64,000 nucleotides of DNA, taken from contig JACPTS010000001.1 in the NCBI GenBank assembly GCA_016192685.1, forward strand, positions 529,099-593,098. The letters are read 5' to 3'. The first letter of the stretch is position 1; each line of letters begins with the position of its first letter. The stretch is from Candidatus Harrisonbacteria bacterium (lineage in GTDB: Bacteria > Patescibacteriota > Minisyncoccia > UBA6257 > 02-FULL-45-10c). Under the pieces are notes generated by a model that had not been told where the DNA came from, did no database searches, and was given only the letters and a program-made list of their open reading frames with translations. This document shows, piece by piece, positions 3,297-64,000 of this stretch. Both the position numbers and the translations under genes were made by a program.

Positions 3297-3430
3297 CCAG
3301 AACCTGCAACCCACAGTATTGAAAGCCGTGAAGCTCCCAATTGTGGAGGTTTGGCTGCCCCTTTCTGCCCGCAATTGGGCTAAGTAGCAGCTCTTCACGG
3401 AAAAACAATACTGTAGGTTGCATTTTTATT
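3297..3430. repeat. Long imperfect inverted repeat / structured intergenic element
   Basis: tgcaacccacagtattg...ccgtgaag...caattg is mirrored by caattggg...cttcacgg...caatactgtaggttgca, giving arms of about 40 bp. Confidence 0.5.
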
Positions 3431-8777: not shown

Positions 8778-9449
8778 CTAATCTTCTTCTTCCTTCTTGG
8801 CTAATTCCGTGGCAACTATTGTAATCCCAATTTTTAACTGGCCAACGATTTTTTCCATATGCAATTCCGGTTGGGAATTTAAAGTTATTTCTACATAACC
8901 GTTTTTTGTGCCAGAGCTATTATAAGTAGTGACGCAAACCATTGATTTCCCATCTTTTTCAGTTTTTTGGAAAGTACCGTACATAGAGCCATCTTCTTTT
9001 TCAAAAAGGTTGTCAGTTTTAATTGTTTTTTCACCATTTTGTTCGGAATCATATATAAAGTTGAACAATTCAATTAAATTTTGGGCTTCTTCAGGCCGAA
9101 ATTCGGTATATTTCAGGAATTGAATGAAACTTTTACCATCCGTAGTATTTTCCAAAGAAAGCATTATTTTTTCTGGATGAAAATCCTCCGGACTAGCTGG
9201 CCAGGCATTAATTGAAACTATTTTTATTTTATTTTTTGGCTGCTCCTGATATTTTATTCTGATGCTTAATTCATCCCAATTTACGCCATAAAAAAACATT
9301 GCTATTTTTTGGTACCATTTTACATTTTGAAATTCAAGATCGTAATGAATTATTTGTTCTTTGAAATTTGTTTCTTCCGCGAAAGCAACGGCAGTGAAGC
9401 GGGAGATGAAGAAAAGAAGCAAGATTGGCGCGGTTATTAAGCGGGCCAT
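8778..9449 (-). CDS. Secreted hypothetical protein
   Basis: N-terminal signal peptide MARLITAPILLLFFISRFTAVAFA. 223 aa. Confidence 0.45.
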   Translation of the reverse strand: MARLITAPILLLFFISRFTAVAFAEETNFKEQIIHYDLEFQNVKWYQKIAMFFYGVNWDELSIRIKYQEQPKNKIKIVSINAWPASPEDFHPEKIMLSLENTTDGKSFIQFLKYTEFRPEEAQNLIELFNFIYDSEQNGEKTIKTDNLFEKEDGSMYGTFQKTEKDGKSMVCVTTYNSSGTKNGYVEITLNSQPELHMEKIVGQLKIGITIVATELAKKEEED

Positions 9450-9710
9450 TCCTTTTAAATTTTTATTTTAAATAACCTTTTTAAGGTTATTCTATTTTTA
9501 TGAAAATCACAAGTCTAATCAGGCGAAATTCCAGGGTGTGGATAACCTGCGGATAAAAAAGCCATTTTAGCTTTATTTTTTAGCCTATTTTGGCGCTGGC
9601 TGGCATTGTTAAATTTTTAATCCAAGTGGGGTACAATTAAATGGTAGTGGGGAATTGTGGATAAGTATGGGGATAGAGCGTCAATCAGGGGATAAGTTCC
9701 ACTCGCTGTA

Positions 9711-9842
9711 CCTTTCTTTCTATCGGCACCGGCGTCGCTTCGCTCCAGCGGCGAAGCGCGCCTACGCCTCGCTCCGAAAATTTTCGCTTCGCGAAAAACC
9801 AATCTTTTTGGAGCTCCGTAGTTGCCGTACAAAAGAAAGGTA
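9711..9842 (+). repeat. GC-rich palindromic repeat element, family A, copy 1
   Basis: Core cggcaccggcgtcg...cgcctacgcctcgctccgaaa...ttcgcttcgcgaaa...ggagctccgtagttgccg with terminal inverted repeat acctttct/agaaaggt. Sits at the right edge of the integrative element. Confidence 0.7.
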
Positions 9843-9894
9843 AGCTCGCTAATTGTTGTTAGTTGTGGGTCGTTAGTCATAAGTCATAAGTCAA

Positions 9895-20129: not shown

Positions 20130-20155
20130 ATTTCAATTATATCACAGCAAAGTGA

Positions 20156-20291
20156 GCTACCTATCTGCCGTGCGGCAACTACGGAGCCGCAATTTGCTCG
20201 GTTTCGCCGAAGGCGAAAAATTGCGGCGAGGCGTAGGCGGCGCCGACCGCAGGAGTCGGCGAACGCCGGTGCCGATAGGCAGATAGGTAGC
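20156..20291 (-). repeat. GC-rich palindromic repeat element, family A, copy 2 (reverse orientation)
   Basis: cggcaactacggagc...gaggcgtaggcg...cgccggtgccg with terminal inverted repeat gctacctatctgcc/ggcagataggtagc. Confidence 0.7.
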
Positions 20292-20300
20292 GAGCGTCTT

Positions 20301-20327
20301 TTGGCACTCTATTGACAAGAGTGATAA
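20301..20327 (+). promoter_or_regulatory. CIRCE-like HrcA operator (imperfect)
   Basis: TTGGCACTC-N9-GAGTGATAA compared with consensus TTAGCACTC-N9-GAGTGCTAA, directly upstream of hrcA. Confidence 0.65.
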
Positions 20328-20347
20328 AAGTTTTATAATGCTTTAAT

Positions 20348-21052
20348 ATGGATTTAAGGAGAAAAACGGTTTTAGAAACAGCCATTAAAGAATATATTCG
20401 GAGCGGGGAGCCGGTAGGTTCTAAAGAACTCGCGAAAAAATACGATTTCGGCGTAAAAGCCGCGAGCATCCGGAATGAGCTTGGCCAACTTACCAAAGAC
20501 GGATTTTTAGCCCAGCTCCATACTTCCGGCGGCCGGGTGCCGACGGATAAGGGTTATCAGCTGTTCGTGGCATCTACGCTGGAAAATGTGGTGGAATCCA
20601 AAAAAATTCTGGAAGGCCGTTATGGGGCGCTGGCCGGCGATCTCCGCACTGGTAAACTGAAAGAATTCGTGGATGCTTTTTCCGGAGAAATGAAGCTTTT
20701 GGGCGTTGGCAAAAAAGAAAAAGAAATTCAGGCGTACAAGAGCGGCTTGAAGGATTTAGTAGAGCATTTAGATATTAGCACCAAAAAAGAAATGTCAGAG
20801 ATAGTGAACGATTTTGAATCATTAGATAGCCGGATTGACGAGGTGCGAGAGAAGATTTTTAATACCCTCCGTTTGCCCCAGGTATTTATCGGCAAAAGCC
20901 CGATTACCAAAAGCAAGAATCTTTCGGTGGTGATGGACAGCTTCAATATTAAAGATGGCAAGGTGCTGGTGGCAGTGATCGGGCCGAAGCGGATGGATTA
21001 TGATAAAACTTTAAAGGCATTTAAGCAGTTAAAAAATGAGTTAAAGAATTAA
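20348..21052 (+). CDS. hrcA: Heat-inducible transcription repressor HrcA (short form)
   Basis: N-terminal wHTH TVLETAIKEYIRSGEPVGSKELAKKY. 234 aa. Confidence 0.8.
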   Translation: MDLRRKTVLETAIKEYIRSGEPVGSKELAKKYDFGVKAASIRNELGQLTKDGFLAQLHTSGGRVPTDKGYQLFVASTLENVVESKKILEGRYGALAGDLRTGKLKEFVDAFSGEMKLLGVGKKEKEIQAYKSGLKDLVEHLDISTKKEMSEIVNDFESLDSRIDEVREKIFNTLRLPQVFIGKSPITKSKNLSVVMDSFNIKDGKVLVAVIGPKRMDYDKTLKAFKQLKNELKN

Positions 21053-21059
21053 TTTTTTT

Positions 21060-21207
21060 GATAGCTCTGCATATCTGCCTACCGGCACCGGCGTCGTTTC
21101 GCTCCTGCGGCGAAACGCGCCTACGCCTCGCTCCGAAATTTTCGCTTCGCGAAAGCCGAGCATTTCGGAGCTCCGTAGTTGCCGCACGGCAGATATCCAG
21201 AGCTATC
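21060..21207 (+). repeat. GC-rich palindromic repeat element, family A, copy 3
   Basis: ccggcaccggcgtcgtttcgc...cgcctacgcctcgctccgaaattttcgcttcgcgaaa...tttcggagctccgtagttgccg with terminal inverted repeat gatagctctgcatatctgcc/ggcagatatccagagctatc. Confidence 0.75.
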
Positions 21208-21214
21208 TATTACT

Positions 21215-21727
21215 ATGAGTGAAGATAATAAAGACGAAAAATTAAATTCCGAGGAGGAAGTTGGGGAAGAAAAGAAGCCAAAGGACGGGGAAGAAGTAGA
21301 TAAGCTGAAAGCCGAACGGGACGAATATCTTAACGGCTGGAAGCGAGCAAAAGCGGATTTAATCAATTATCAGAAAGACGAAGGCAAGCGGTTTGAGGAA
21401 ATGGCGGAATACGTGACCGGAGCTATGGTAAGAGATTTAATTCCGGTGCTGGATAGTTTTGAACTGGGAATCGCCGCGCTTGAAAAAAACGGTCCGGTGG
21501 ATAAAGGAGTTTACATTATAAAAACCCAGCTGGAAGAAGTTTTAAAGAAAAAAGGTTTGGAAAAAATTAAAGTTTCTCCTGGCGACCCATTTGATACTAT
21601 GAAACATGAATCAATTGGTGAAGTGGAGGGGAAAGGCGTTTCGGGACAAGTAGCAGAAGAAATTGAATCCGGCTATATGTTAAATGGCAAAGTCGTAAGG
21701 CCGGCACGCGTAAAGCTGACAAAATAA
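21215..21727 (+). CDS. grpE: Nucleotide exchange factor GrpE
   Basis: Acidic N-terminus, coiled coil, GrpE C-terminal beta domain. Start set at the ATG downstream of the repeat. Confidence 0.85.
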   Translation: MSEDNKDEKLNSEEEVGEEKKPKDGEEVDKLKAERDEYLNGWKRAKADLINYQKDEGKRFEEMAEYVTGAMVRDLIPVLDSFELGIAALEKNGPVDKGVYIIKTQLEEVLKKKGLEKIKVSPGDPFDTMKHESIGEVEGKGVSGQVAEEIESGYMLNGKVVRPARVKLTK

Positions 21728-23679: not shown

Positions 23680-24504
23680 ATGGAAATAATAACAAAGAAA
23701 TTTTATTTAAAGCTTGGTTTATCAGAAAAAGATATTTTAGCTCTTAATAAAGAGCTTTCATTACTCGCTGGACTTAAATTAAGTCCATCTGCCAAACCTC
23801 GTCGTATAGAAATGTTACAAGAGGCCATTCGATGGCCAAAAGGTAAAAATCAAGAAAAAAGGAAAATAACGGAGCTTTATAAATCTGGTGATTTTATAGT
23901 TGCCGTTGGTAAACCAGGAAAAGAAGCGGCGCCAGCTTTCAAACGGAAACATTACATAACTGGCAAGATTACTAATAATCCAAATGACATGAACCCCTTT
24001 GTTATGAGGGGAGGTAAAAAAGTTGGGAATGATTTAACTTTTGCAGAATTATTTGAGCAAATTGAACATTTAATTCGAGCAGATTTACTTGGATTGGAAC
24101 TTTTAGGGATGCTTATATTCAGAATGGCTTTTATGTTAGATCACAAAAAAGATTTAAAGGGGAAATGGAGATATATTCCTCCGGAAAAATCTTTGGCAAT
24201 GCTTAAAAAACGACTCCCTAAAGTTGGCGATATTCCGGTAGATATATTTTTATATTTTCTCGATGTATTAGCTCTCAATGAGGATGTTAAGATGCATACC
24301 TTGGGTCATGAAAATGCTCGATATGATTATGGACGAGTCAATACTTTACTTACCTTTACTCACTTAATTGCAGTTTTATTAAATCGACGCTCTCTAGCAA
24401 AATTTGCTGGTACGTTTGCTCGGCCACCTTCGGGAATGGCTCCACTACCTAAAATAAAAGGACTTTTTGAAACTTATCCTCTTTTATCTCCAGATTTTGT
24501 TTAA
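23680..24504 (+). CDS. Hypothetical protein, possible PD-(D/E)xK nuclease
   Basis: 274 aa. Contains IPVD-x12-EDVK. Its 3' end overlaps the fused LexA-MTase gene by 4 nt in convergent orientation. Confidence 0.3.
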   Translation: MEIITKKFYLKLGLSEKDILALNKELSLLAGLKLSPSAKPRRIEMLQEAIRWPKGKNQEKRKITELYKSGDFIVAVGKPGKEAAPAFKRKHYITGKITNNPNDMNPFVMRGGKKVGNDLTFAELFEQIEHLIRADLLGLELLGMLIFRMAFMLDHKKDLKGKWRYIPPEKSLAMLKKRLPKVGDIPVDIFLYFLDVLALNEDVKMHTLGHENARYDYGRVNTLLTFTHLIAVLLNRRSLAKFAGTFARPPSGMAPLPKIKGLFETYPLLSPDFV

Positions 24505-25967
24505 ATTTTAATCCTTTTTCTTCCCAGAAATAATTTATGTTCTGGAGCAATGAAACCATTTGCGAGGCGTTTGTTTATTATGTCACAGTATTCTTTGTTG
24601 AGCTCGGCCGAAATAAATTGGCGATTTAAATTTCTGCATACATCTATTTCTGCACCACTACCACCAAAGAGAACTAAAACCTTATCTTTTGGCTTAGTTG
24701 ATGATTTAATAAACATTTCAGTTAATTTTTGTGGAATTTGACAAGCGTGAAAAGTTTTTTCTTTGCTGACATTTTTTACAAGATTAAACTCAAACCATGA
24801 GTAAGGCATTCTTCCCTTTGAGCCATTTGCCAGATTTTGACGAATTCTTCTGTCTGTTGGATTTTTATATGGTAACGCTACTGCGTCTTTGAAGAATTTA
24901 TTATCAGCACTTTTACGAACATGAAGTATGCTTCTGTGTGCTGTTGTGAATCTTTTTGGTGTATGTCCGACATTTGTATTATAAACCCAAACATACTCAT
25001 TAATATTAGGAAAATTTATATCTAAGTATTTTACGCGAAGATGTGCATTTTGTTGAGGATAGTTCATCATAAAAAGGTTCCCATCGTTTTTTAGAACTCT
25101 CATTGATTCCTTAGTAAGTTCGGTATACCAATTTAAATAATCGTCAAAATTTCTTGTATAGTTATTACTACCATATCTAATACCGACATTATAATCCGGA
25201 TCCCCAAAAATCATGTCAATGCTATTATTTGGCAGGTCTTTCAAAACATGCATTATATCGCCGTTGTAAACTTTATTGATATATTCAGAAATATTTCCAC
25301 GTTGTTGGGGGCTTTTTTTAGAGGGTAGAATAAATGATTGGTTTAATTGTTTTATCTTATTAGTTTCAATAACATCCAGCATAATTCCTTGAATATGAAA
25401 ATCTTGTCCGCGGCGCACAATTATCGGCTCCATTTTTTTATTTGCCGGTTGTAGACGAACTTGCCCGCGTTCTTTATAGAATTTTTTAAGCGTTGCTCCA
25501 CCATCAACTAAGGCCACAATTTTTTGACCATTTTCAGCAGTGCTTTGGTGGCGCACAAGAATTGTATCGCCATCATTAATATTTTCATCAATCATACTGT
25601 TACCAGCTACTTTTAAAGCGTAAATATTGCTATTGCTGGAATTGGGGAGTTTATTTTTAGGAATCGCTATATTTTCGCTTACAGTATCAAATAGTGTTAA
25701 TGGTTGACCGGCAGCAATAGTGCCCAGTAGGGGAATTTGAACCATTTGTTCATTTTGGTTAGATAATTCAATCCCACGAGAGATGTTATCATTTCGTCGT
25801 AAAAAACCTTTTTCTACAATCGCATCAATATGTTCCAATATCGTTGAGTGCGCGGAGAGGCGAAAATGTTTTTTAATTTCCTCCGTGGTAGGGGAAATAG
25901 ATTGTTTTTTAATAAAATCAGAAACAAAATCGTAAATTTGTTTTTGACGTCTTGTCAGTGTTGCCAT
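24501..25967 (-). CDS. Fusion protein: LexA-type repressor (wHTH plus S24 autopeptidase) fused to a beta-class N4/N6 DNA methyltransferase
   Basis: The N-terminal approximately 200 aa form a complete LexA: wHTH, hinge IPLLGTIAAGQP with the Ala-Gly scissile bond, Ser VAGNSM, Lys ATLKK. The C-terminal approximately 290 aa carry MTase motif IV (IFGDPDYN) ahead of motif I (VLFGGSGAE). Single uninterrupted ORF of 488 aa. Confidence 0.75.
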   Translation of the reverse strand: MATLTRRQKQIYDFVSDFIKKQSISPTTEEIKKHFRLSAHSTILEHIDAIVEKGFLRRNDNISRGIELSNQNEQMVQIPLLGTIAAGQPLTLFDTVSENIAIPKNKLPNSSNSNIYALKVAGNSMIDENINDGDTILVRHQSTAENGQKIVALVDGGATLKKFYKERGQVRLQPANKKMEPIIVRRGQDFHIQGIMLDVIETNKIKQLNQSFILPSKKSPQQRGNISEYINKVYNGDIMHVLKDLPNNSIDMIFGDPDYNVGIRYGSNNYTRNFDDYLNWYTELTKESMRVLKNDGNLFMMNYPQQNAHLRVKYLDINFPNINEYVWVYNTNVGHTPKRFTTAHRSILHVRKSADNKFFKDAVALPYKNPTDRRIRQNLANGSKGRMPYSWFEFNLVKNVSKEKTFHACQIPQKLTEMFIKSSTKPKDKVLVLFGGSGAEIDVCRNLNRQFISAELNKEYCDIINKRLANGFIAPEHKLFLGRKRIKI

Positions 25968-27426: not shown

Positions 27427-27957
27427 ATGCAAATACCCAGACGGAAGTCGGAAGAACTTAGGAGGAAAGTTGAGGGGCCGATTCATATAACTGAAGAGGG
27501 TTTTAAGCGCCTGAAAGAACGGCTGGCGCATCTTAAACTTGCGCTGCCTGGCTATATCGTTGAGACGCAACGGGCCGCCGCATTCGGCGATCGGTCGGAT
27601 AATGCTGAATATAAAGATGCAAAATCAAGATTAACCCGCACGCACTTACAAATTTTAAGAATTCAGGATCAAATTAAGCGGGCGGTGATAATTCCTTCGG
27701 GTCAGAATACTTCTGGCTCGGTCCAGCTCGGTTCCACTGTTATATTGCGGGCCGAAGGCCTCGAGTATTCCCGAGGGGCAGGTGAGTCGCGGAAAACTTT
27801 TCAAATTCTTGGCGCGCATGAAACCAATCCAACTTTAGGGCGTATTTCATTTCAGTCGCCGCTCGGTGCCGCGCTTATGAATCACAAAAAAGGCAATGCC
27901 GTCACAATCCAGACCCCAACCGGTCCCCAAAAATATATTATTTTAGAAATTAAATAA
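27427..27957 (+). CDS. greA: Transcription elongation factor GreA
   Basis: GDRSDNAEY motif and a C-terminal FKBP-like domain. 176 aa. Confidence 0.85.
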   Translation: MQIPRRKSEELRRKVEGPIHITEEGFKRLKERLAHLKLALPGYIVETQRAAAFGDRSDNAEYKDAKSRLTRTHLQILRIQDQIKRAVIIPSGQNTSGSVQLGSTVILRAEGLEYSRGAGESRKTFQILGAHETNPTLGRISFQSPLGAALMNHKKGNAVTIQTPTGPQKYIILEIK

Positions 27958-27968
27958 ATCATTCGGTA

Positions 27969-28095
27969 AAAATTCCCTTTCCTGAAAATTTTCTTTTTGG
28001 TTATCTTCTCTAATTGTATCGAATGATTGAATAGTTTCAAAAATAAAATTTGCCCTTCTAAAAATTTTCTGCTAACCTATACCAAAACCAGCGGC
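27969..28095 (+). repeat. Intergenic repeat module, copy 2 (approximately 125 bp)
   Basis: aaattccctttcctgaaaattttctttttggtta(t/c)cttctctaattgtatcgaatgattgaatagtttcaaaaataaaatttgcccttctaaaaattttctgctaacctataccaaaacc is near-identical to 29087-29212. Confidence 0.8.
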
Positions 28096-28173
28096 AAAAA
28101 TAGCGTTTTTGCAATACAGTTATCCACCAAAGTTATTTATTACAGGTTAGTTATTATAGATTATCCGCAACAT

Positions 28174-28199
28174 TCTAACATTCTGCAGAATGTTGGAAT
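28174..28199. promoter_or_regulatory. 26-bp palindrome (candidate ArsR-family operator), upstream copy
   Basis: ttctaacattctgcagaatgttGgaa, with 1 mismatch from a perfect palindrome, overlapping the regulator start. Confidence 0.6.
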
Positions 28200-28495
28200 G
28201 TTGCGGGAGTAATGATATAGTGAAAATTATGAAAACGCCGAAACAACTAGAAAGACACTTTAAGGGGGTAGCCAATCATTGGCGGATCGCGATTTTATCA
28301 ATCGTGCATCAAAATGAGGGGATTGCGGTTGATGGCATCACGAAAGAGCTTAATGCGAATTTTAAAACCATTTCCCAACACACTAGATCATTGGTCCAAG
28401 CCGGCCTTTTGAATAAAAAATATCTCGGCCGCCAAGTAACCCACACCCTCTCGCCTTACGGGAAACTTTTTCTTAAATTTATTAAATCATTCTAA
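28190..28495 (+). CDS. ArsR/SmtB-family HTH transcriptional regulator
   Basis: HWRIAILSIV...GIAVDGITKELNANFKTISQHTRSLVQAGLL wHTH. 101 aa. Confidence 0.7.
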   Translation: MLECCGSNDIVKIMKTPKQLERHFKGVANHWRIAILSIVHQNEGIAVDGITKELNANFKTISQHTRSLVQAGLLNKKYLGRQVTHTLSPYGKLFLKFIKSF

Positions 28496-28515
28496 CATTC
28501 TGCAGAATGTTAGAA
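28490..28515. promoter_or_regulatory. Perfect 26-bp palindrome, downstream copy
   Basis: ttctaacattctgcagaatgttagaa, which is its own reverse complement. Overlaps the regulator stop. Confidence 0.65.
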
Positions 28516-28677
28516 TAAAGTTTCTAAAGATAAAATTCCCTTTCCTGAAAATTTTTTGCAGCGGGGTTAAAATTTTTCAAAACATTCTCAAGTGTGTAAG
28601 GATGTTATTTTTAATATAAAATTCTTTTGCCTGAAAATTTCCGCCTGTTATGGATTAAAGAATGCTAGAATAAACAA

Positions 28678-29076
28678 ATGAGAACTTATCAGGAATTTTA
28701 TCAGAGCATCCAGAAACCATTTTTTTCTCCGCCGGAATGGGCGTTCGGGTTGGCGTGGGGGATTATTTATCCGCTGATTGTGGTTGCTGGAATATATTTG
28801 ATTTATCTGGTTTATAAAAAACAAGCGCCGAAAAGTTTACTATGGGTTTTTCTTGCAAATTTGGCCGCGAATCTTTTATTTACTCCAATTCAGCTTGGTT
28901 TGAAATCGCTTTGGCCGGCGTCAGTTGTTATTTTAATAATTTTAGGAACTTTGGCTTTTTTTGAATATAAAATCCGGCTTCATTCCAAATTGATTTTTGT
29001 TTTGCTTTTGCCTTATCTTTTGTGGGGCGCATTTGCCACTGCGCTTCAGCTGTCAATCACCCTTTTAAATTTTTAA
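28678..29076 (+). CDS. TspO/MBR-like tryptophan-rich membrane protein (short)
   Basis: KPFFSPPEWAFGLAWGIIYPLIVVAGIYLI matches the TspO KPxWxPP...VWxxLY signature. 132 aa, about 4 TM helices. Confidence 0.5.
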   Translation: MRTYQEFYQSIQKPFFSPPEWAFGLAWGIIYPLIVVAGIYLIYLVYKKQAPKSLLWVFLANLAANLLFTPIQLGLKSLWPASVVILIILGTLAFFEYKIRLHSKLIFVLLLPYLLWGAFATALQLSITLLNF

Positions 29077-29086
29077 TTTAAATAAA

Positions 29087-29283
29087 ATTCCCTTTCCTGA
29101 AAATTTTCTTTTTGGTTACCTTCTCTAATTGTATCGAATGATTGAATAGTTTCAAAAATAAAATTTGCCCTTCTAAAAATTTTCTGCTAACCTATACCAA
29201 AACCGGCGCTACAATTTTTAATAAAATAACCCAAATTAATCAGATAATTCGCAAAACTTGCTTCCGCGGCAGGTTTTTTGTCA
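29087..29283 (+). repeat. Intergenic repeat module, copy 3 (full: approximately 125-bp core plus terminal hairpin)
   Basis: Near-identical to 27969-28095 and extends through cgcaaaacttgcttccgcggcaggtttttt. Confidence 0.8.
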
Positions 29284-38448: not shown

Positions 38449-39735
38449 ATGGATTTTCCGGCTATTGCTTTTGGAATCAGCAAGACAATTTTAGAGGTTT
38501 TGAAAGTCAGTTGGTGGGCGTTATTGCCGCTCGGCTTATTTTTCTTTTGGCGGGAATTTTGGCTTTGGGGATTGAATCGTTTATGGAAAAAGAAACAAGA
38601 ATGGATTTTGTTGGAATTGAAGATTCCCCGCAATATTTTGAAGACTCCGAAAGCGATGGAAAATGTTTTTTCCGCCCTTCATGCCATTTATATCAGGCCG
38701 ATGGGTTTTGAAGACGTCTATTTTAAAGGCGAAGAGTTATATTGGTTTACTTGCGAGTTAGTGGGCTATGCCGGCGGAGTTAATTTTTATATCCGTTGCC
38801 TGAAAGGATTTCGCAATTTAGTTGAGTCCGCGATTTATTCGGAATATCCGGATGCTGAAATTGCGGAAGCGGAAGATTATACCGCTCTTATGCCGGACGT
38901 TTTGCCGAATGATATTTATGATCTTTGGGGCAATGATTTTATTTTAGCGAAAGATAATCCTTACCCGATTCAAACCTACGAGTTTTTTGAGGCTAACGTG
39001 GAAGAGCAAAGATTGGATCCGATTTCTGCCATTACGGAAGCGATGTCCCGCCTGAAAGAGGGGGAGGCGATTTGGCTCCAGTATCTTCTCCGGCCGGTAT
39101 CAGACGAGTGGAAAAAAGAAGGAGAGGCTCTGCGGGATAAAATGATGCAGCGCAAAAAAGAAAAAGAAGCAGGGTGGCTGGAGTCAATCGTGCAGGGACT
39201 GGTTCAATTTTTCAAAAATCTTTCTTTAGCTTCCATTGAACATCCGACTTGGCCGGAAACGGCGAAAAAGGAAAAAGAATATAAATTAATGGAATTTTTA
39301 TCCCCGGGAGAAAGGAAAGTGCTGGAAGGTATTGAGAATAAGATATCCAAATTAGGTTTTGAAGCCGCTATCCGGTTTATTTATATTGACCGGAAAGATA
39401 GTTTTTCTCGGGCTAATATTTCTGCCGTGCACGGGGCCATGCGCCAATTTAATACTCAGGATATGAATAGTTTTAGGATGCTCAGCGGAACAACGACCTA
39501 TGTCACTTCCAAAATATTAACTTACAAGAGCTGGTTTCGGGAACAACGGGTTTTTTATCTGAAGCGTTTGATTTATGAACTTTACAGACTGCGCTGGTTT
39601 CCGCCGAAAGTTTCTGTTTTAAATACGGAGGAGCTGGCAACCGTGTTTCATTTTCCATTGGTAACCGTGGAAGCGCCTTTGCTTGGCAGGGTAGAAGCTA
39701 AAAAGGGTGAGTCGCCATCTAATCTTCCAATTTAA
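38449..39735 (+). CDS. Membrane-anchored hypothetical protein (partner of the downstream ATPase)
   Basis: 2 N-terminal TM helices. 428 aa. Confidence 0.35.
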   Translation: MDFPAIAFGISKTILEVLKVSWWALLPLGLFFFWREFWLWGLNRLWKKKQEWILLELKIPRNILKTPKAMENVFSALHAIYIRPMGFEDVYFKGEELYWFTCELVGYAGGVNFYIRCLKGFRNLVESAIYSEYPDAEIAEAEDYTALMPDVLPNDIYDLWGNDFILAKDNPYPIQTYEFFEANVEEQRLDPISAITEAMSRLKEGEAIWLQYLLRPVSDEWKKEGEALRDKMMQRKKEKEAGWLESIVQGLVQFFKNLSLASIEHPTWPETAKKEKEYKLMEFLSPGERKVLEGIENKISKLGFEAAIRFIYIDRKDSFSRANISAVHGAMRQFNTQDMNSFRMLSGTTTYVTSKILTYKSWFREQRVFYLKRLIYELYRLRWFPPKVSVLNTEELATVFHFPLVTVEAPLLGRVEAKKGESPSNLPI

Positions 39736-39752
39736 TAAAAACTGGTAAATTT

Positions 39753-41339
39753 ATGCTTAAAAAAGAAATAATAAACCATTTTGGAATAACTAATTTTAGG
39801 AATCACAAGCAGGTATTTGGAATTAAGATAGAGGACCGCCGCCGGCATGTTTATGCGATTGGAAAAACCGGGTCGGGAAAAACTAATCTTTTAGAAACTA
39901 TGGCAATTGCCGATATTTTAGCCGGCAATGGAATGGCTTTTATAGATCCTCACGGAGACTCTGCTGAAAGGCTGCTGGATTTTATTCCGGAAAATCGCAT
40001 TAAAGACGTGATTTATTTTGACCCTTCTGACATGAATTTCCCCATTGCCTTTAATCCTTTGGAGCAAGTTGGAACAGAATATCGCCATTTAGTGGCATCT
40101 GGAATTATGGGAGTTTTTAAGAAAATCTGGGTGGATATGTGGTCAGCGCGGATGGAGTATATTTTAAACAATACTTTGCTCGCGCTTTTGGAATATCCCG
40201 AATCAACCTTGCTTGGCATTATGAGAATGCTGAATGATAAAGATTACCGGAAAAAAGTAGTGGACAATTTAAAAGACCCGGTAGTTAAAGGATTTTGGGT
40301 TAATGAATTCGCGAAATACAGCCAAAAATTTGAAACTGAGGCAACGGCTGCCATTCAGAACAAGGTTGGCCAGTTTGTCACTAATCCTTTAATCCGGAAT
40401 ATTTTAGGTCAGCCAAGGTCTTCTTTGGATATGCGCAGGGTAATGGATGAGGGCAAGATTTTAATTGTAAATTTATCTAAAGGCAAAATTGGAGAAGATA
40501 ATTCCGCGCTTTTGGGCGCGATGATAATTACCAAGCTTCAACTTGCGGCAATGTCCCGGGTGGATGTTCCGGAAAGCGAGCGTCAGGATTTTTACCTTTA
40601 TGTGGATGAATTCCAGAATTTTGCCACTGATTCTTTCGCGAGTATTCTTGCCGAGGCAAGAAAATATCATCTTTGTCTGATTTTAGCCCATCAATATATA
40701 TCTCAATTAATTCATGCCACTACTACTAAAGTTCGGGATGCGGTTTTTGGCAATGTTGGAACATTGTTGGCTTTCCGGGTTGGCGCGGAAGACGCGGAGT
40801 TTTTGGAAAAAGAATTTCAGCCGGATTTTATGGCGACTGACTTTGTTAATCTGCCTAAATATAATTTTTACATTAAATTGATGATTGATGGAATTTCTTC
40901 CCGCCCTTTTTCCGCTTCCGGCATTCCTCCTTTAAAACCGCTGGAGAAAAATTTTAAAAATGAAATTATTGAAAATAGCAGAAGGGAATATGGAAGGCCT
41001 CGGGAAATTGTTGAAAAGAAAATAGACCGAGATTGGCTGGCTGGAGGAGAAGTTATGGTTGAAGAAAAAATTTTCCGCCGGGCCGAACGCCCGCTTTCTC
41101 AGGTTTTAAAGCCGAAAGACGCGGGAGAAGAGCGATTTTTTGCTCCGAAGCCTCGGTCTTCGGCTGGTTCGCCTCCGGCGGAAAAACCGTCAATTCCGAT
41201 AGCCGAGTCCCGTCCGGATTTTCACAGGGAACCGCCGGCAGTTCCGGAAAGAAGTAAAAAGAAAGTGGCGATTGATGAACTGCGAGCGGCTTTAGAAAAG
41301 TCTTTGGCCGGCTCTCGAAGAAAGAATGATGAAGAATAA
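39753..41339 (+). CDS. FtsK/HerA/TraD-superfamily P-loop ATPase (T4SS coupling-protein-like)
   Basis: Walker A GKTGSGKT, Walker B LYVDEFQNF. 528 aa. Confidence 0.55.
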   Translation: MLKKEIINHFGITNFRNHKQVFGIKIEDRRRHVYAIGKTGSGKTNLLETMAIADILAGNGMAFIDPHGDSAERLLDFIPENRIKDVIYFDPSDMNFPIAFNPLEQVGTEYRHLVASGIMGVFKKIWVDMWSARMEYILNNTLLALLEYPESTLLGIMRMLNDKDYRKKVVDNLKDPVVKGFWVNEFAKYSQKFETEATAAIQNKVGQFVTNPLIRNILGQPRSSLDMRRVMDEGKILIVNLSKGKIGEDNSALLGAMIITKLQLAAMSRVDVPESERQDFYLYVDEFQNFATDSFASILAEARKYHLCLILAHQYISQLIHATTTKVRDAVFGNVGTLLAFRVGAEDAEFLEKEFQPDFMATDFVNLPKYNFYIKLMIDGISSRPFSASGIPPLKPLEKNFKNEIIENSRREYGRPREIVEKKIDRDWLAGGEVMVEEKIFRRAERPLSQVLKPKDAGEERFFAPKPRSSAGSPPAEKPSIPIAESRPDFHREPPAVPERSKKKVAIDELRAALEKSLAGSRRKNDEE

Positions 41340-42702: not shown

Positions 42703-42856
42703 CTTTATTTTACTCGCCGAATCTTTTCCCTCAACCCGTTTCGCTCATCCAGCGATTCGCTCACTTGTGCTCGTCGATTTGGTCGCCTGCGGCGACACCA
42801 TGCCAAATTGACTGCGCGGGTTTCGGAGAAAAGATATCGTCTCGTTCCAATAAAGC
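42702..42856 (+). repeat. GC-rich palindromic repeat element, family B, copy 1
   Basis: ttccctcaacccgtt...ctcacttgtgctcg...ctgcgcgggtttcggag with terminal inverted repeat gctttatt/aataaagc, immediately after the nucleotidyltransferase stop. Confidence 0.65.
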
Positions 42857-43261: not shown

Positions 43262-44671
43262 ATGTCAAATGTTAAAAGTAAAAAGTTAAAGGTATTTTGT
43301 GCAATGTCCGGCGGAGTGGATAGTTCGGTTGCGGCAGGCCTTTTGAAGCAGGAAGGATATGAAGTGATTGGGGCGCATATGAAATGTTGGAGTGATGGTA
43401 GCCCTACTTCGCCAAGGCTTCGAAGGGCGGATGCTTGCGCATCCGAGCAGGATGCGGAAGACGCGCGAAGAGCGGCGGAGGTTTTGGGCATTCCATTTTA
43501 TGTTTTTGATTTTGAAAAAGAATATAAGGAGAAAGTAGTGGAATATATGGTGGATGGGTACCGGCAGGGAATTACGCCAAATCCGGACGTGATGTGCAAC
43601 AAGGAAATCAAGTTCGGGCTTTTTTTGAAAAAGGCATTGGAAATGGGAGCGGATTATGTCGCTACAGGTCATTATGTTTGTTTGGTTGAGCGAAGAAACT
43701 TTATTCCCTCAACCCGTTCGTCCGCCACCGCGGACTCACTTGTGCTCGCTCGCTTTGCCGATCGAGGCTTTGCCAAAACGATCGGACCAGGCAAAGCGGC
43801 TGCGCGGGTTTCGAAGAATAAAGCTTCTTCGCTTTATGGAATTCAAAGTAGCTGCTCCGCCTGTGTTTCGTGCGGCAACTACGGAGCCCTGAAATGCTCG
43901 GATTTTTGCGAAGCAAAAAATTTTAGGGCGAGGCGTAGGCGCGGTCGCCCGCCGGAGGCGACCGACGCCGGTGCCGTCAGAAATGCAGGCGGAGCGGCAC
44001 TTTTTACAGCTAAAGACAAAAATAAAGACCAGTCCTATTTTCTTTGGACTTTGACGCAGGAGCAGTTGCGGCATTGCCTTTTTCCGATTGGGGATTATTT
44101 GAAGCCGGATGTTAGAAAAATGGCGCGGAAGTTTGGTTTGCCGAACGCGGAGAAAAAGGACTCGCAGGGGATTTGTTTTTTAGGCCAGGTAACGCTGAAA
44201 GATTTTTTGGGAAATTATTTGCCGGAAAAGCGGGGATTGATTTTAAATACTGTAGGCAAAGTTGTTGGTGAGCATCAAGGGGCGCATTTTTATACTATTG
44301 GCCAGCGAGGCGGCCTTGGATTGGGCGGACAGGTGAAACCGGTTTATATCGCAGAAAAAGATATTAAAGAAAATGCGATTTTGGTGGCGGAAGAAAATGA
44401 TGCAGTGCTTTATAAAAAAGAGATTGAACTGAAAAATGTTAATTTAATAAATTCTGAATTAAAAATTCTGAATCATGAATTATTGATTCCTATTTTTGTT
44501 AGAGTTCGTTATAGGCAGCCATTAGTAAAAGCGAAATTAGTTATATGCCGTATGCCGTATGCCACATGTAAACTTGTGTTTGATAAGCCTCAAAAGTTTG
44601 TCGCGGCCGGCCAATCCGCGGTTTTCTACAATGCGCGGGGCGCAATGTTAGGCGGAGGCACTATTGCGTAA
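43262..44671 (+). CDS. mnmA: tRNA 2-thiouridylase MnmA with an approximately 100-aa in-frame repeat-derived insertion
   Basis: PP-loop SGGVDSS, ATGHY, KDQSYFL. 469 aa versus about 360 aa typical. The extra segment between ATGHY and KDQSYFL coincides with GC-rich repeats B and A. Confidence 0.85.
   Translation: MSNVKSKKLKVFCAMSGGVDSSVAAGLLKQEGYEVIGAHMKCWSDGSPTSPRLRRADACASEQDAEDARRAAEVLGIPFYVFDFEKEYKEKVVEYMVDGYRQGITPNPDVMCNKEIKFGLFLKKALEMGADYVATGHYVCLVERRNFIPSTRSSATADSLVLARFADRGFAKTIGPGKAAARVSKNKASSLYGIQSSCSACVSCGNYGALKCSDFCEAKNFRARRRRGRPPEATDAGAVRNAGGAALFTAKDKNKDQSYFLWTLTQEQLRHCLFPIGDYLKPDVRKMARKFGLPNAEKKDSQGICFLGQVTLKDFLGNYLPEKRGLILNTVGKVVGEHQGAHFYTIGQRGGLGLGGQVKPVYIAEKDIKENAILVAEENDAVLYKKEIELKNVNLINSELKILNHELLIPIFVRVRYRQPLVKAKLVICRMPYATCKLVFDKPQKFVAAGQSAVFYNARGAMLGGGTIA
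43699..43990. repeat. Composite family B (43699-43833) plus family A (about 43860-43990, reverse) insertion inside mnmA
   Basis: ctttattccctcaacccgtt...ctgcgcgggtttcgaagaataaag followed by gcggcaactacggagcc...gaggcgtaggcg...gacgccggtgccg. Reading frame stays open. Confidence 0.7.
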
Positions 44672-49987: not shown

Positions 49988-50569
49988 TCAAGCAATTTCG
50001 GGGAAAAGAATTAAAGTGCTGACGGGCGTTTTATCAATGATTGCAAAAAGAGGGATAAAATTAAGTTCCCGGTGAGCATTTTCGTCCGGCAGGGATAGAT
50101 ATACTACGAGGGCGGCTTGATATGCCGCGATAAGCTGTTTCACCTTATTGCGCCGATTTAGCGGCATAAAATCCAAGTTTTCCAGGAAATATTTAAGGGT
50201 TTGGCGAAATTTTAAAACCTCGCTGCGCTCATTCGGGCTAAGCGAAGTAAGATATTTTTTTTGATTGCGTATAGCATCTATGGTTTTTAAAAGAAATCGG
50301 ATTTCCGCTTTTAAAATTTCGTAACTGACAGCTAAATCTTTTAAGTCTTGAATATTAAGCAAAATGGGTTTTGGCGGAAAAAGCCATTGGTTGCCGTGCA
50401 GAATTTGAATTGCCCGGTCCGCCGCCTCTTTTCTGGTATTGGAAAATTCATCCCGAATACTTTTAAAAAGTTTAAGCAAATTCTTTTGTTTTTTGCCGCA
50501 ATAAAAAACATAAAGGGTTACCGCCAGTATTGGCAGGACGAGAAAAATAATTCCGGCCGCTAGCAGCAT
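49988..50569 (-). CDS. Membrane-anchored hypothetical protein
   Basis: N-terminal TM helix. 193 aa. Confidence 0.35.
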   Translation of the reverse strand: MLLAAGIIFLVLPILAVTLYVFYCGKKQKNLLKLFKSIRDEFSNTRKEAADRAIQILHGNQWLFPPKPILLNIQDLKDLAVSYEILKAEIRFLLKTIDAIRNQKKYLTSLSPNERSEVLKFRQTLKYFLENLDFMPLNRRNKVKQLIAAYQAALVVYLSLPDENAHRELNFIPLFAIIDKTPVSTLILFPEIA

Positions 50570-50776: not shown

Positions 50777-50933
50777 AAAAAGCTTTGCCAAATTGTTTAC
50801 GGGAACCGGCGTCACTCTGCTCTAGCGGCAGAGTGCGCCTACGCCTCGGCTTCAAAACTCGCCCCACAGTGTGGGGCGAGAACAAGCTTTTGAAGCCTCC
50901 GTAGTTTCCCTACAACAACTTAGCAAAGCTTTT
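50777..50933 (+). repeat. GC-rich palindromic repeat element, family A, copy 5 (variant central hairpin)
   Basis: accggcgtc...gcgcctacgcctcggc...ctccgtagtt with central palindrome ctcgcccca-cagtg-tggggcgag. Terminal inverted repeat aaaagctttgccaaattgtt/aacaacttagcaaagctttt. Confidence 0.65.
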
Positions 50934-57468: not shown

Positions 57469-59232
57469 ATGAAATCAGAAGAGATTCGTAAAAGGTTTTT
57501 AAAATTTTTTGAAGAGCGCGGGCATACGATTGTTTCGTCTTCCTCTTTAGTTCCCGATGACCCATCGGTGCTTTTGACTACGGCCGGAATGCAGCAGTTT
57601 AAGCCGTATTATGTCGGTAAAGCCGACCCAATGAGGGATTTCGGTTCTCGGAATACGGCTTCGGCGCAAAAATGTTTCCGGACTTCGGATATTGATGAAG
57701 TCGGCGATCAAACTCACCTGACTTTTTTTGAGATGCTCGGTAATTTTTCTTTCGGCGGTTATTTTAAAAAAGAAGCAATCCGTTGGGCGTATGAATTTAT
57801 AGTTAATGAATTAGGCGTGAGCCGTGACCGGCTCACGGTAACTATTTTTGCCGGTGACCCTTCGGCAGGCTCAGGGCAAGTTATTCCGGAAGATAAGGAA
57901 TCGTATAGTATCTGGCATAAAGAAATCGGCTTGCCGGAATCGCGGATTAAAAAGCATGGCCGGCAGGATAATTTTTGGGGGCCGACCGGCAATGAAGGCC
58001 CTTGCGGCCCGACTACGGAAATTTACGTTGACGGCGTGGAGATTTGGAATTTAGTGTTTAATGAGTATTATTGCAAAGCTGATAAAACTTTAGAAAAATT
58101 ACCTTCGCCAGGCGTAGATACTGGAATGGGATTGGAGCGTTTAGCCGTAATGCTTCAAGGCGCGGGTAATGTTTTTGAAACGGATTTATTTCACCCCCTC
58201 ATTTCTAAATTAAGAGAGGTCGCTCCGAAGTTGCCGTACGAAACGCAGCCAGATCAGCCAGAGCGTATTCTTCGGATTTTGGCAGACCATCTCCGCGCTT
58301 CTATTTTTTTGATTGCTGATGGCGTACGGCCGTCCAATAAAGAAGCTGGCTATATTTTGCGGCGGCTTCTGCGGAGGATTTTGGTTTATGGCATTCAATA
58401 TGATATTCACGCGGATTTATTTCCGATGGCGGTTGATTTTGTAAAATATAATTACGGCGATTGGTATCCGGAGATCAAAAATACCAAAGAAATTTTAACG
58501 GTAATGCTGGAAGAAAAAACTAAGTTTGAAAAAGCGCTGGCGCTTGGAGTGAAAGAAATTGAAAAATATGAATCAATTTCCGCCAAAGACGCCTTTTATA
58601 TTTATGAAACTTTTGGCTTGCCGTGGGAACTTTTAAAAGAATTAGTGCCGGCAAAAGTGAAAAATTTGGCTAAAGAAGCTTTTGAAGAAGAATTTAAAAA
58701 GCATCAGGAAATTTCCCGCGCCGGATTGGAGAAAAAATTCGGCGGGCACGGTTTGATTTTGGACACCGGCGAACTTAAAGCTTCCACGCCGGAAGAAGTA
58801 GAAATTGTCACCCGGCTCCATACCGCCACTCATCTTTTGCAGGCGGCGCTTCGGAAAGTGCTGGGGCCGGAAGTTAAACAAATGGGTTCGGATATTACGG
58901 CCGAGCGGACACGATTTGATTTTTCTTTCAATCGTAAACTTACCGATGAAGAAATAAAAAAGGTGGAAGATTTAGTCAATGAAGCCATTCAAAAAGATTT
59001 GCCGGTGTCCTATCAGGAATTGCCGATTGCGGAAGCGAAAAAAACCAAAGCTCTGTATTTTTTTAAAGAAAAATATCCGGAACAAGTAAAAGTGTATTCC
59101 ATGGGGGAATTCAGCAAAGAATTCTGCGGGGGGCCGCATGTTACTAATACTTTAAGAGTTGGAAAGTTTAAGATTGCAAAGCAGGAGGCTGTTGGTTCGG
59201 GAATCAGACGGATACGTGGGGTTGTGGAGTAG
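57469..59232 (+). CDS. alaS: Alanyl-tRNA synthetase (short, lacks C-Ala domain)
   Basis: Catalytic domain plus editing-domain motifs HTATHLL and CGGPHV. 587 aa. The stop abuts the partial repeat A. Confidence 0.85.
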   Translation: MKSEEIRKRFLKFFEERGHTIVSSSSLVPDDPSVLLTTAGMQQFKPYYVGKADPMRDFGSRNTASAQKCFRTSDIDEVGDQTHLTFFEMLGNFSFGGYFKKEAIRWAYEFIVNELGVSRDRLTVTIFAGDPSAGSGQVIPEDKESYSIWHKEIGLPESRIKKHGRQDNFWGPTGNEGPCGPTTEIYVDGVEIWNLVFNEYYCKADKTLEKLPSPGVDTGMGLERLAVMLQGAGNVFETDLFHPLISKLREVAPKLPYETQPDQPERILRILADHLRASIFLIADGVRPSNKEAGYILRRLLRRILVYGIQYDIHADLFPMAVDFVKYNYGDWYPEIKNTKEILTVMLEEKTKFEKALALGVKEIEKYESISAKDAFYIYETFGLPWELLKELVPAKVKNLAKEAFEEEFKKHQEISRAGLEKKFGGHGLILDTGELKASTPEEVEIVTRLHTATHLLQAALRKVLGPEVKQMGSDITAERTRFDFSFNRKLTDEEIKKVEDLVNEAIQKDLPVSYQELPIAEAKKTKALYFFKEKYPEQVKVYSMGEFSKEFCGGPHVTNTLRVGKFKIAKQEAVGSGIRRIRGVVE

Positions 59233-59262
59233 GGGCCGCCGCAGGAGCAAGCGGACGCCGGT
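59222..59262 (-). repeat. Partial family A repeat (half element)
   Basis: gcaggagcaagcggacgccggtgccggtaggca resembles the copy 2 arm. Confidence 0.5.
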
Positions 59263-59295
59263 GCCGGTAGGCAAATAAGCAAAACGCCTAGCGGC

Positions 59296-62523: not shown

Positions 62524-62907
62524 ATGAGAATCAGCGGAATCAACATACCGGACAATAAAAGAATAGAAATATCGCTTGCTTATTTGTATGGCATCGGGCC
62601 TGCTTTGGCTAGGAAAATTTTACAAGCGACTAAAGTTGACTTGGACAAACGCGCCAAAGATTTAACGCCGGAAGAAGTAAATAAAATTAAAAATTTCATA
62701 GAAAAAAATTACAAGATTGAAGGCGAACTTCGCCAGCTGTTGAAGCAAAATATCAATCTTCTGAAAGAATTGCAGGCCTACCGCGGGATAAGGCATTTAA
62801 GGCACTTGCCGGTAAGAGGGCAGCGAACCCGCACCAATTCCCGCACGGTTCGCGGCAATGTCAGAAAGACCGCCGGCAGCGGCAAGAGGAAAACAGAATT
62901 AAAATAA
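62524..62907 (+). CDS. rpsM: 30S ribosomal protein S13
   Basis: MRISGINIPDNKRIEISLAYLYGIG. Confidence 0.9.
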   Translation: MRISGINIPDNKRIEISLAYLYGIGPALARKILQATKVDLDKRAKDLTPEEVNKIKNFIEKNYKIEGELRQLLKQNINLLKELQAYRGIRHLRHLPVRGQRTRTNSRTVRGNVRKTAGSGKRKTELK

Positions 62908-62950
62908 GACTTATAAGTCTTATGGGTCTTATTGGACTTATATATAAAAA
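62904..62950. repeat. Palindromic repeats in the rpsM-rpsK intergenic region
   Basis: ataagacttataagtcttat is a perfect 20-bp palindrome, followed by gggtcttattggacttat. Confidence 0.55.
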
Positions 62951-63405: not shown

Positions 63406-63409
63406 TAAA

Positions 63410-63445
63410 TAGGACCTATAAGACTTATAGGTCCAATAGGACTTA
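63410..63445. repeat. Palindromic repeats in the rpsK-rpsD intergenic region
   Basis: gacctataagacttataggtcc shares the taagacttata core with the 62904 element. Confidence 0.55.
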
Positions 63446-64000
63446 TGTTCAATACCAAAGAAAAAAAGGAACGGGCATTAGGGGTAAAACTTTTTTTGAA
63501 AGCGCATCGTTGTAATTCGCCAAAATGCGTAATGTTAAGGCGGCCGCACCGCCCCGGCCTTCACGGCAAAGCCAGGCATGTTTTATCGGAAGTCGGCCAA
63601 CAGCTTCAGGAGAAGCAAAAAATTAAAGTAAGTTATGGTTTAAGGGAATCTCAAATGGGGAAAATTTTTCGGAAGGCAGTTAAGAATCCCGGCGTCACCG
63701 GAGAGATGATAATTCAATTGTTGGAACGCCGTTTAGATAATGCCGTATTCAGGCTTGGCCTTGCCCCTTCCCGGTCAGTAGCGCGGCAATTAGTCAGTCA
63801 TGGCCATATTTTAGTGAATAGCCGAAAAGTCAGCATTCCGTCTTATTTGGTTAAAATCGGCGATCAAATCAGCGTCCGTCCCCAATCAAGAGAAAGCGGC
63901 TCTTTAAAAGGATTAAGCGAGTGGTTAAAAAATTATCAAGAGCCGGTTTGGCTGAAATTAGAAAAAGATAGCGGGGTTGGCAGGGTGGTAGCCTTGCCGA
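63446..64000 (+). CDS. rpsD: 30S ribosomal protein S4 (partial, runs off the window)
   Basis: Starts MFNTKEKKERALGVKLFLKAHRCNSPKC... and continues in frame to the window edge. Confidence 0.8.

Follow-up and report, generated by a model that had tools for sequence, protein, structure and literature searches.

A structured palindromic repeat family of Candidatus Harrisonbacteria that resembles the RPEs and is found in frame within conserved genes

Described palindromic elements and their relation to family A

Of the systems described so far, the Rickettsia palindromic elements (RPEs), of which RPE-1 to RPE-10 are distinguished (Ogata et al., 2000, 2002), come closest to the repeat investigated in this study, termed family A, judging by the accounts given in PMC10969869 and PMC2229807. 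Both consist of dispersed palindromic repeats of 100–150 bp that come in several families per genome, which here also include a second family, B, and at least one other. Both are found between genes and also, which is unusual, in frame within conserved housekeeping genes, where they are translated, and both reside in the small, reduced genomes of host-dependent bacteria, with a transposase having been identified in neither case. Family A differs from the RPEs in its host, which belongs to another phylum (CPR/Patescibacteria), and there is no known sequence relationship between the two; with Candidatus Harrisonbacteria as host, homology to RPE-1 to RPE-10 is thus not expected. It is further distinguished by a three-way junction with conserved loops, which contrasts with the simple long hairpin of an RPE, and by the fact that in its hosts one and the same protein loop has taken up insertions more than once, from more than one family and in either orientation. 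For RPEs, PMC6649704 reports, with reference to Claverie and Ogata (2003), that the palindrome is lost over time, whereas the stems of family A stay 95% paired by compensatory change, although truncated remnants exist too.

The comparison extends to two further classes of short repeats. REPs, whose movement is believed to proceed through folded single-stranded DNA and among which the CGTC REPs are without known transposase (PMC3733652; PMC3337134), share with family A, as do REPINs, the appearance of GC-rich stem-loops that are mostly located just downstream of genes and in some cases within them. A likeness is also found in the short tags, since helix P3 of family A is preceded by GTAG on the reverse and by CGTC on the forward strand (cf. 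PMC3733652). However, REPs are single hairpins of 20–40 nt and REPINs doublets, whereas family A spans about 140 nt with six helices. The REP tag is unpaired and the stem sequence conserved, whereas in family A the tags form base pairs in P4 and at the foot of P3. In addition, CGTC is not constant in its last base, and the DNA examined showed no RAYT gene. Because the tags are paired in the supported fold, we regard the resemblance to REPs as a lead and not as membership. MITEs such as Correia/NEMIS, ERIC/IRU, RUP and Nezha (PMC2229807; PMC10969869) are similar to family A with respect to their size, the long stem connecting the 5' and 3' ends, their scatter between genes, fusions in frame with genes in some cases and a potential influence on adjacent transcripts. 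In contrast to family A, whose termini covary at 47% identity and which shows a CTCGC repeat at about half of its copies, the termini of MITEs are conserved in sequence, match a parent IS and come with a defined target-site duplication. The RPE- or MITE-like mobile character assigned to the repeat in the original prediction fits the evidence, although family A is not a MITE in the strict sense, its termini being conserved in pairing and not in sequence.

A different mode of recognition is found in palindromic elements derived from IS200/IS605 and in the attC sites of integrons, where a folded single strand is recognized together with a few extrahelical bases. Family A resembles these systems in that its structure and some extrahelical bases count, whereas the sequence of its stems is of no importance. 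The target beside which IS200/IS605 elements insert is short and fixed and is not truly duplicated, and by analogy targeting of this type could mimic the bracket of CTCGC repeats around family A. Their single-strand transposition predicts a strong orientation bias, with the top strand on the lagging-strand template. In contrast, the forward strand of family A coincides with the G-rich strand at 21 loci and the reverse strand at 18 (p = 0.75). No bias relative to GC skew is thus apparent, which speaks against a lagging-strand mechanism of the IS200/IS605 type. Family A also differs in the lack of a nearby Y1 transposase or integrase and of R'/R'' core sites, and its copies are dispersed and not arrayed.

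Copies, fold and distribution of family A

The window, which is the entire stretch of 64 kb of Candidatus Harrisonbacteria DNA that was analysed, contains five full copies of family A with a core of 138 nt, one half copy of 45 nt and one remnant of 23 nt. A covariance model built from 12 copies and run on the window without filters finds exactly five full copies at 130–153 bits (E = 1e-33 to 1e-40). These are copy 1 (9707–9844, +; 153 bits, E = 5e-40), copy 2 (20156–20291, −), copy 3 (core 21066–21201, +), copy 4 (43856–43993, −) and copy 5 (core 50784–50927, +), with copy 3 showing an extension of P1 to 28 nt and copy 5 a longer P6 hairpin. Including their outer stems, copies 3 and 5 occupy 21060–21207 and 50778–50933, which agrees with the spans originally proposed for them (21060–21207 and 50777–50933). 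All of the copies listed at that time exist and the three modules described as shared are present, one of which, CCGGCACCGGCGTC, is matched ten times in the window with up to two mismatches compared to an expectation of 0.2, with six of the ten matches belonging to family A. A partial copy placed at 59222–59262 does exist, but its similarity is located at 59237–59281 on the reverse strand and covers the 5' half only, comprising the 5' arms of P1 and P2, CACCGGCGTC and the first arm and loop of P3; it abuts and overlaps the stop codon of alaS (59230–59232). The remnant GCTCCGAAGTTGCCGTACGAAAC (58222–58244, +), which corresponds to the 3' end of a forward-oriented copy, is located in frame inside alaS. 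With a G+C content of 0.53–0.64 compared to about 0.41 for the whole window, the copies are GC-rich as claimed, and the inserted units measure 147–156 nt, with the whole unit being about 140–155 bp long.

Each copy folds far better than shuffled sequence (z = −5.7 to −9.3), which bears out the description of extensive stem-loops with an inverted repeat and variable hairpins specific to each copy. The copies share a fold in which the outer stem P1 closes a three-way junction containing P2 to P6. P1 is variable and extends over 12 to more than 25 bp, and P2, a conserved helix of 5 bp (CGGCA/TGCCG), closes the junction from the inside. One arm of the junction, P3, is composed of a GGCG/CGCC base, a variable stem of 8–9 bp and the loop CTCCNGCG, and the second contains P4 (TACG/CGTA), an internal loop, the variable helices P5 and P6 and the bulge AACCNAGC. 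In copy 1, P1 is formed on the forward strand by 9709–9719 and 9832–9842, P2 by CGGCA at 9724–9728 and TGCCG at 9823–9827, P3 by 9731–9744 and 9750–9762 with the loop CCAGC at 9745–9749, P4 by TACG at 9763–9766 and CGTA at 9817–9820, P5 by 9771–9780 and 9805–9814, and P6 by 9781–9787 and 9791–9797, followed by the bulge ACCAATC at 9798–9804.

The conservation of this fold is reflected in 42 distinct copies, taken from groundwater metagenomes and from MAGs of Harrisonbacteria. In these, 94.9% of the cells show standard pairing, compared to about 40% if the partners are slid by one to three columns, 43 of 52 pairs have changed on both sides, including all 12 pairs of P1, and none of 500 shuffles attains any of these measures. 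G-U pairs are rare and the changes proceed almost solely from one Watson-Crick pair to another. With the 24 bases of the search pattern left out, the identity between copies amounts to 75.5% in unpaired columns and 55.7% in paired columns, with values of 47% for P1 and P3, 87% for the P3 loop and 82% for the bulge. Because unpaired columns exceed the stems in identity, conservation resides in the fold and in a small number of unpaired bases and not in the sequence of the stems. The covariance analysis that had been suggested as a check of the repeat has thus, when applied to loci from the window, the MAGs and the metagenomes, revealed strong covariation and a shared fold, and the alignment shows a common architecture instead of a similarity confined to low-complexity GC stretches.

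The pairs that deviate from Watson-Crick geometry carry information on the folding strand. With three doubtful columns set aside, we find 59 A·C cells compared to 15 G·T and about 15 of all other kinds, an excess that is weaker when counted by columns (about 16 compared to 11), with many of the cells being inherited and not independent. Since an A·C on the forward strand is a G·U or G·T wobble on its complement, it is the reverse strand that tolerates wobbles. In addition, the reverse complement of the orientation in which the element was initially read gives the more stable fold in each of 12 copies. The asymmetry tracks the element and not the host gene, as a copy that is forward in the sense strand of its gene (locus L054) keeps its A·C cells on the forward strand, and the three broken pairs separating two mnmA copies that are reverse in sense (in the window and in L046) are all C·A. 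Judged from these sequence patterns, the folding strand is probably the reverse complement of the initial orientation, an assignment that we hold at this level in light of the weaker column count and the inherited cells.

Outside the window, a scan with an exact pattern of one genome per species detected matches only in two Candidatus Harrisonbacteria MAGs and one Patescibacteria MAG. A looser pattern matched 38 metagenome contigs, 35 of which carry true copies according to the covariance model, bringing the further copies in these three Harrisonbacteria/Patescibacteria MAGs and 35 contigs to 44. The remaining three contigs were matched by chance, since none scores with the model and the one that was inspected, L015, is GC-rich. 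The pattern scan of viral contigs gave no match to family A. BLAST searches of the copies against E. coli genomes, plasmids and phages were equally without match, which sets family A apart from ERIC, REP and the known sequences of plasmids and phages. At gathering score, Rfam recognizes only four tRNAs in the whole window, and no family was found over 20130–21230 at E values up to 10. A search with the 52-residue insert peptide against 1.84 billion representatives yielded seven matches, five of which are proteins of only 44–98 residues that look like open reading frames called over intergenic copies, which makes this search uninformative on the range of host genes. No relevant account emerged from a search of a paper library for palindromic elements, MITEs or repeats inserted in frame in CPR, Patescibacteria, Parcubacteria or Harrisonbacteria.

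The window also contains repeats unrelated to family A. A GC-rich palindrome at 3305–3422, with 17-nt arms that are 94% complementary and located 84 nt apart, is followed by a T-run; its sequence is unrelated to families A and B and it may constitute a third family or a terminator. A direct repeat of 144 nt (27950–28093 and 29065–29208, 92% identical) is found between short open reading frames, and within 27950–29208 an AT-rich unit of 33 nt occurs six times, with near-perfect palindromes of 29 nt being located at 28172–28200 and 28488–28516. Tandem 9-nt units of the form ATAAGxCTT are located on either side of the gene for ribosomal protein S11 (62904–62941 and 63409–63446), and AGTCATA is repeated three times at 9874–9894, just upstream of mraZ; both runs may be protein-binding boxes. 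Two genes of the region deserve mention for their domain content, as defined by precomputed Pfam assignments. One encodes a protein of 488 residues (24501–25967, −) that combines a LexA DNA-binding, a peptidase S24 and an N6/N4 DNA methyltransferase domain. At 38449–41339, a DUF8128 protein is followed by a homologue of TraG/TrwB-like type IV coupling proteins, adjoining a protein with sigma-70 region 4 and HARE-HTH domains, these assignments being taken from the same genes in locus L049.

Genomic context and insertions in mnmA and alaS

In the model alignment, 40 of the 42 distinct copies are intergenic, with more intragenic ones emerging from homologues of MnmA and AlaRS (L046/L047, L054). 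Copy 1 is located between a divergent gene (8778–9449, −) and mraZ (9895, +), 50 nt upstream of the latter, and copy 5 between the gene at 49988–50569 (−) and a gene with a guanylate-kinase domain starting at 50999 (+). Copy 2 resides between the divergent genes corA (start 20129, −) and hrcA (start 20348, +) and ends about 20 nt upstream of a consensus hrcA promoter (20312–20339); since it is placed between two divergent promoters, it is probably part of neither mRNA. This hrcA promoter is a perfect TTGACA-16-TATAAT that ends 8 nt before the ATG, leaving the mRNA almost leaderless, and TGATATAAT provides corA with an extended −10 element just before its start, on the strand opposite to that of hrcA. 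Copy 3 fills the spacer between hrcA and grpE, starting 7 nt after the stop codon of the former and ending 7 nt before the ATG of the latter. A scan for promoters and terminators at the copies of the window found no conserved promoter next to them and no stem followed by a T-run; a T-run is seen only after some of the metagenomic copies.

At 15 of 34 loci, the stop codon of an upstream gene is found within 15 nt of the forward 5' end of the element, compared to 2 of 33 for the other end; part of this proximity is owed to very short spacers, with the rest hinting at a gene-oriented role or a target preference, which would not be expected of a purely selfish element. A direct repeat (G)CTCGC(T) flanks about half of the copies. 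It is found as CTCGCT at 9702–9707 and 9845–9850 (+) in the case of copy 1, and it also surrounds the intragenic copy in L054, where it encodes Leu-Ala at either end. Elsewhere, P1 extends to varying lengths into unique flanks, or there is a possible TTA. The direct repeat may have arisen by duplication of the target site, may be a fixed target that is matched by an end of the element, or may belong to the element itself. Two loci with similar flanks, L004 and L005, were considered as orthologues of copies 2 and 1, respectively, and rejected, as different genes adjoin them (ftsH among others); the flank in common (CTCGC..., GCTCACTT...) thus either travels with the element or is its preferred target.

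The consequences of an insertion into a coding region are illustrated by mnmA (43262–44671, +), whose sense strand at copy 4 is the reverse complement of the initial orientation of the element. The copy is in frame and free of stop codons and encodes the sequence ..CVSCGNYGALKCSDFCEAKNFRARRRRGRPPEATDAGAVRN.., which splits the Pfam match of the catalytic domain in two and takes the place of about eight residues of the solved MnmA structure 2hma. In the AlphaFold model, the MnmA fold is well defined, with residues 152–242 showing pLDDT values below 50. Among 78 CPR homologues, the affected loop, located between the motifs GHY and KDQSY, varies between 15 and 116 residues. It is short and therefore read as empty in P0004, P0007, P0019 and P0021, and the DNA of L048 confirms an empty site, which answers, for this coding site, the question whether relatives lack the insertion that had been posed with the initial description. 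A reverse copy of family A occupies the loop in the window and in P0002/L046, and a forward copy in L054. The peptide signature of a forward copy, DGTGV..APTPR..RTKH, is found in MnmA of P0006, P0010, P0017, P0032, P0064 and P0075, in the latter five in the fuller form DGTGV..APTPR..LRSxRTKH..KLA, with only YRTKHTDKLA left as a remnant in P0015. The copies in the window and in L046 share site, orientation and frame in host proteins that are 76% identical, and they differ in 24 of 138 positions, 20 of which are in stems, including seven double compensatory changes. If both descend from one insertion, these sequences would imply that the fold was maintained after the insertion, in contrast to what is reported for RPEs (PMC6649704); if instead a hot spot was hit twice, the difference would reflect ordinary lineage diversity.

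The same loop has been entered by family B, a second branched palindromic repeat of the same size, which in the window is found in an intergenic region (42717–42840, +) and in frame in mnmA (43692–43830, +), directly upstream of copy 4. Family B is characterized by the conserved motifs TTCCCTCAACCCGTT, CTCACTTGTGCTCG and CTGCGCGGGTTTCG. Besides the window, its peptides (RRNFxPSTR...) are found in MnmA of P0025, P0059 and P0060, with a reverse copy in L055, and the loop contains other repeats in further lineages. A separate insert of 11 residues of the SDGSPTSPRLRRADA type is located in the N-terminal domain of MnmA (window 43400–43440, residues about 47–58).

A similar pattern is observed in alanyl-tRNA synthetase (AlaRS), where 4 of 120 homologues carry a full copy of family A at position 247. 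These occur in both orientations, with L031/P0122, P0141 and P0165 sharing one and P0154 containing the other, the latter in a full version of 44 residues (..LRPAPKLPHEIQS). In the same loop, alaS of the window has kept the in-frame remnant that is translated as ..VAPKLPYETQ... The relatives also contain short lineage-specific AlaRS inserts at positions 95–97, 131, 181, 195–198 and 348, and in P0220 a peptide of about 20 residues, GSLRQAQGELSSPTNNVFPE, is found at two sites, which suggests yet another family of inserted repeats. Every intragenic copy, in mnmA of the window, L046, L054 and L055 (the latter of family B) and in alaS of L031, P0141, P0154 and P0165, is in frame and free of stop codons, from which we conclude that it is probably translated through and not excised, and an intron-like behaviour was rejected on these grounds. 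Two of the six frames are open in 54–61% of the copies compared to 24% in shuffled sequences. As this excess is modest and the intragenic copies use at least four frames, we have not adopted the idea of a design as peptide module. The cases in mnmA and alaS are instances of independent insertion, tolerated read-through and decay.

Origin and probable mobility of family A

The observed features have to be accounted for by a process that explains both the maintenance of the fold and the dispersal of the copies. A structure acting in cis in the RNA of the host, located at 3' ends or between cistrons as terminator, exonuclease block or RNase III site and spread because it is useful, as has been proposed for REP/BIME, ERIC and Correia elements, is in our view an unlikely basis of the repeat. 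Such a role would fit the strong covariation with its conserved loops and copy 3 in the hrcA-grpE spacer of a heat-shock operon, yet copy 2 is found outside both neighbouring mRNAs, between divergent promoters, both orientations occur inside coding regions, and the adjacent genes (mraZ, corA, hrcA/grpE and a gmk-like gene) have no common function. The start of the forward element 2–15 nt past a stop codon would also be in line with this role, although any intergenic insertion in a compact genome sits near a stop codon, and the wobble tolerance points to the strand opposite to the one transcribed together with the upstream gene. The T-runs after several copies have no counterpart at the copies of the window, where the terminator scan found none behind a stem. 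The original prediction had mentioned a structured ncRNA family as an alternative, with which the strong covariation agrees, whereas the intragenic copies in either orientation, the context of copy 2 and the wobble pattern tied to the element speak against it. The same applies, to a larger extent, to the idea that the copies are genes for a structured RNA acting in trans, or a small ribozyme that has proliferated in the genome as hammerhead and twister motifs have, which we consider highly improbable. Although the three-way junction has covarying stems and unpaired nucleotides that do not vary, and although it is present in several species, there is no supporting feature other than the fold: even at E values up to 10 Rfam offers no match, no conserved promoter is found beside the copies, and on inspection of the sequence no core of hammerhead, twister or hairpin ribozymes was seen. 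Additionally, G-U pairs are rare and the intragenic copies are in frame and stop-free.

Covariation would not require any selection for a fold if the palindrome were maintained neutrally by template switching or gene conversion from arm to arm or from copy to copy. The scarcity of G-U intermediates in the exchange of Watson-Crick pairs, the outer stems that run for different lengths into unique flanks and the whole P1 and P3 modules that look reshuffled among copies would all be compatible with this process, and perfect inverted repeats are known to arise by template switching (PMC6649704). Nevertheless, we find it quite improbable as a full account, since it explains neither why unpaired bases are more conserved than stems (75.5% compared to 55.7%) nor the four-fold excess of A·C over G·T that is tied to one strand, and since it accounts for the maintenance of the repeat but not for its dispersal.

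We thus consider it probable that family A is a non-autonomous, structure-dependent mobile palindromic element of Harrisonbacteria-like CPR bacteria that resembles the RPEs. The mobile character that had been proposed for the repeat is supported by its dispersal, by the sharing of modules, by the in-frame insertions and by the empty sites and remnants. Copies are dispersed in both orientations, and similar P1 or P3 modules are encountered at unrelated loci, as in mnmA of the window, alaS of L031 and the intergenic copies in L002 and L036. It counts against this reading that neither a transposase nor an autonomous parent was found in the annotated 33–64 kb of the window, that no parent insertion sequence with the same ends was detected in 378 kb of DNA examined, and that a tblastn search with a sequence of IS200 TnpA gave no match in the CPR loci. 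The sole match to a Y1 transposase is located in L015, the GC-rich contig matched by chance that contains no element, and is thus irrelevant.

A mechanism that would reconcile these properties starts from a folded single-stranded intermediate, either DNA or RNA, on which the spread of the element would depend, and whose conserved unpaired bases in junction and loops might be recognized by an enzyme encoded elsewhere. The stems would be free to change as long as pairing is retained, and since only lineages that keep the fold would leave descendants, covariation would emerge. New copies would survive at sites where they cause little harm, such as short spacers past stop codons, regions upstream of promoters and loops at the protein surface. 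In the latter, they would be tolerated where length and frame permit read-through, leading to translation as disordered inserts, and they would later decay into short remnants.

Beyond the mobile, RPE-like element, a more specific proposal is tentative and, on present evidence, rather doubtful. It assumes that the three-way junction is the substrate of a structure-guided mobilisation of one strand that is specific to CPR bacteria, requires no termini conserved in sequence and relies on a new kind of recognition, and that families A and B and others explain many of the insertions in CPR proteins. It would also accommodate a stronger form, in which the fold is kept after insertion because it is used by the host. 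If true, family A and its sister families would be a main source of the lineage-specific insertions in the housekeeping proteins of CPR bacteria.

Collectively, palindromes that enter coding regions in frame have so far been treated as a peculiarity of Rickettsia. The same behaviour in Harrisonbacteria and in many related groundwater Parcubacteria points to an independent origin in another lineage of tiny host-dependent bacteria. Families A and B also illustrate how several families re-enter the same protein loops, with their decay into short remnants being visible. They offer a concrete mechanism for some of the insertions found in CPR proteins, where the MnmA loop alone varies between 15 and 116 residues. 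Palindromic elements of this kind can mislead gene callers, screens for ncRNAs and alignments of CPR marker proteins, and a mobile element whose stems covary like those of a functional RNA provides a good system for the study of recognition during mobilisation.
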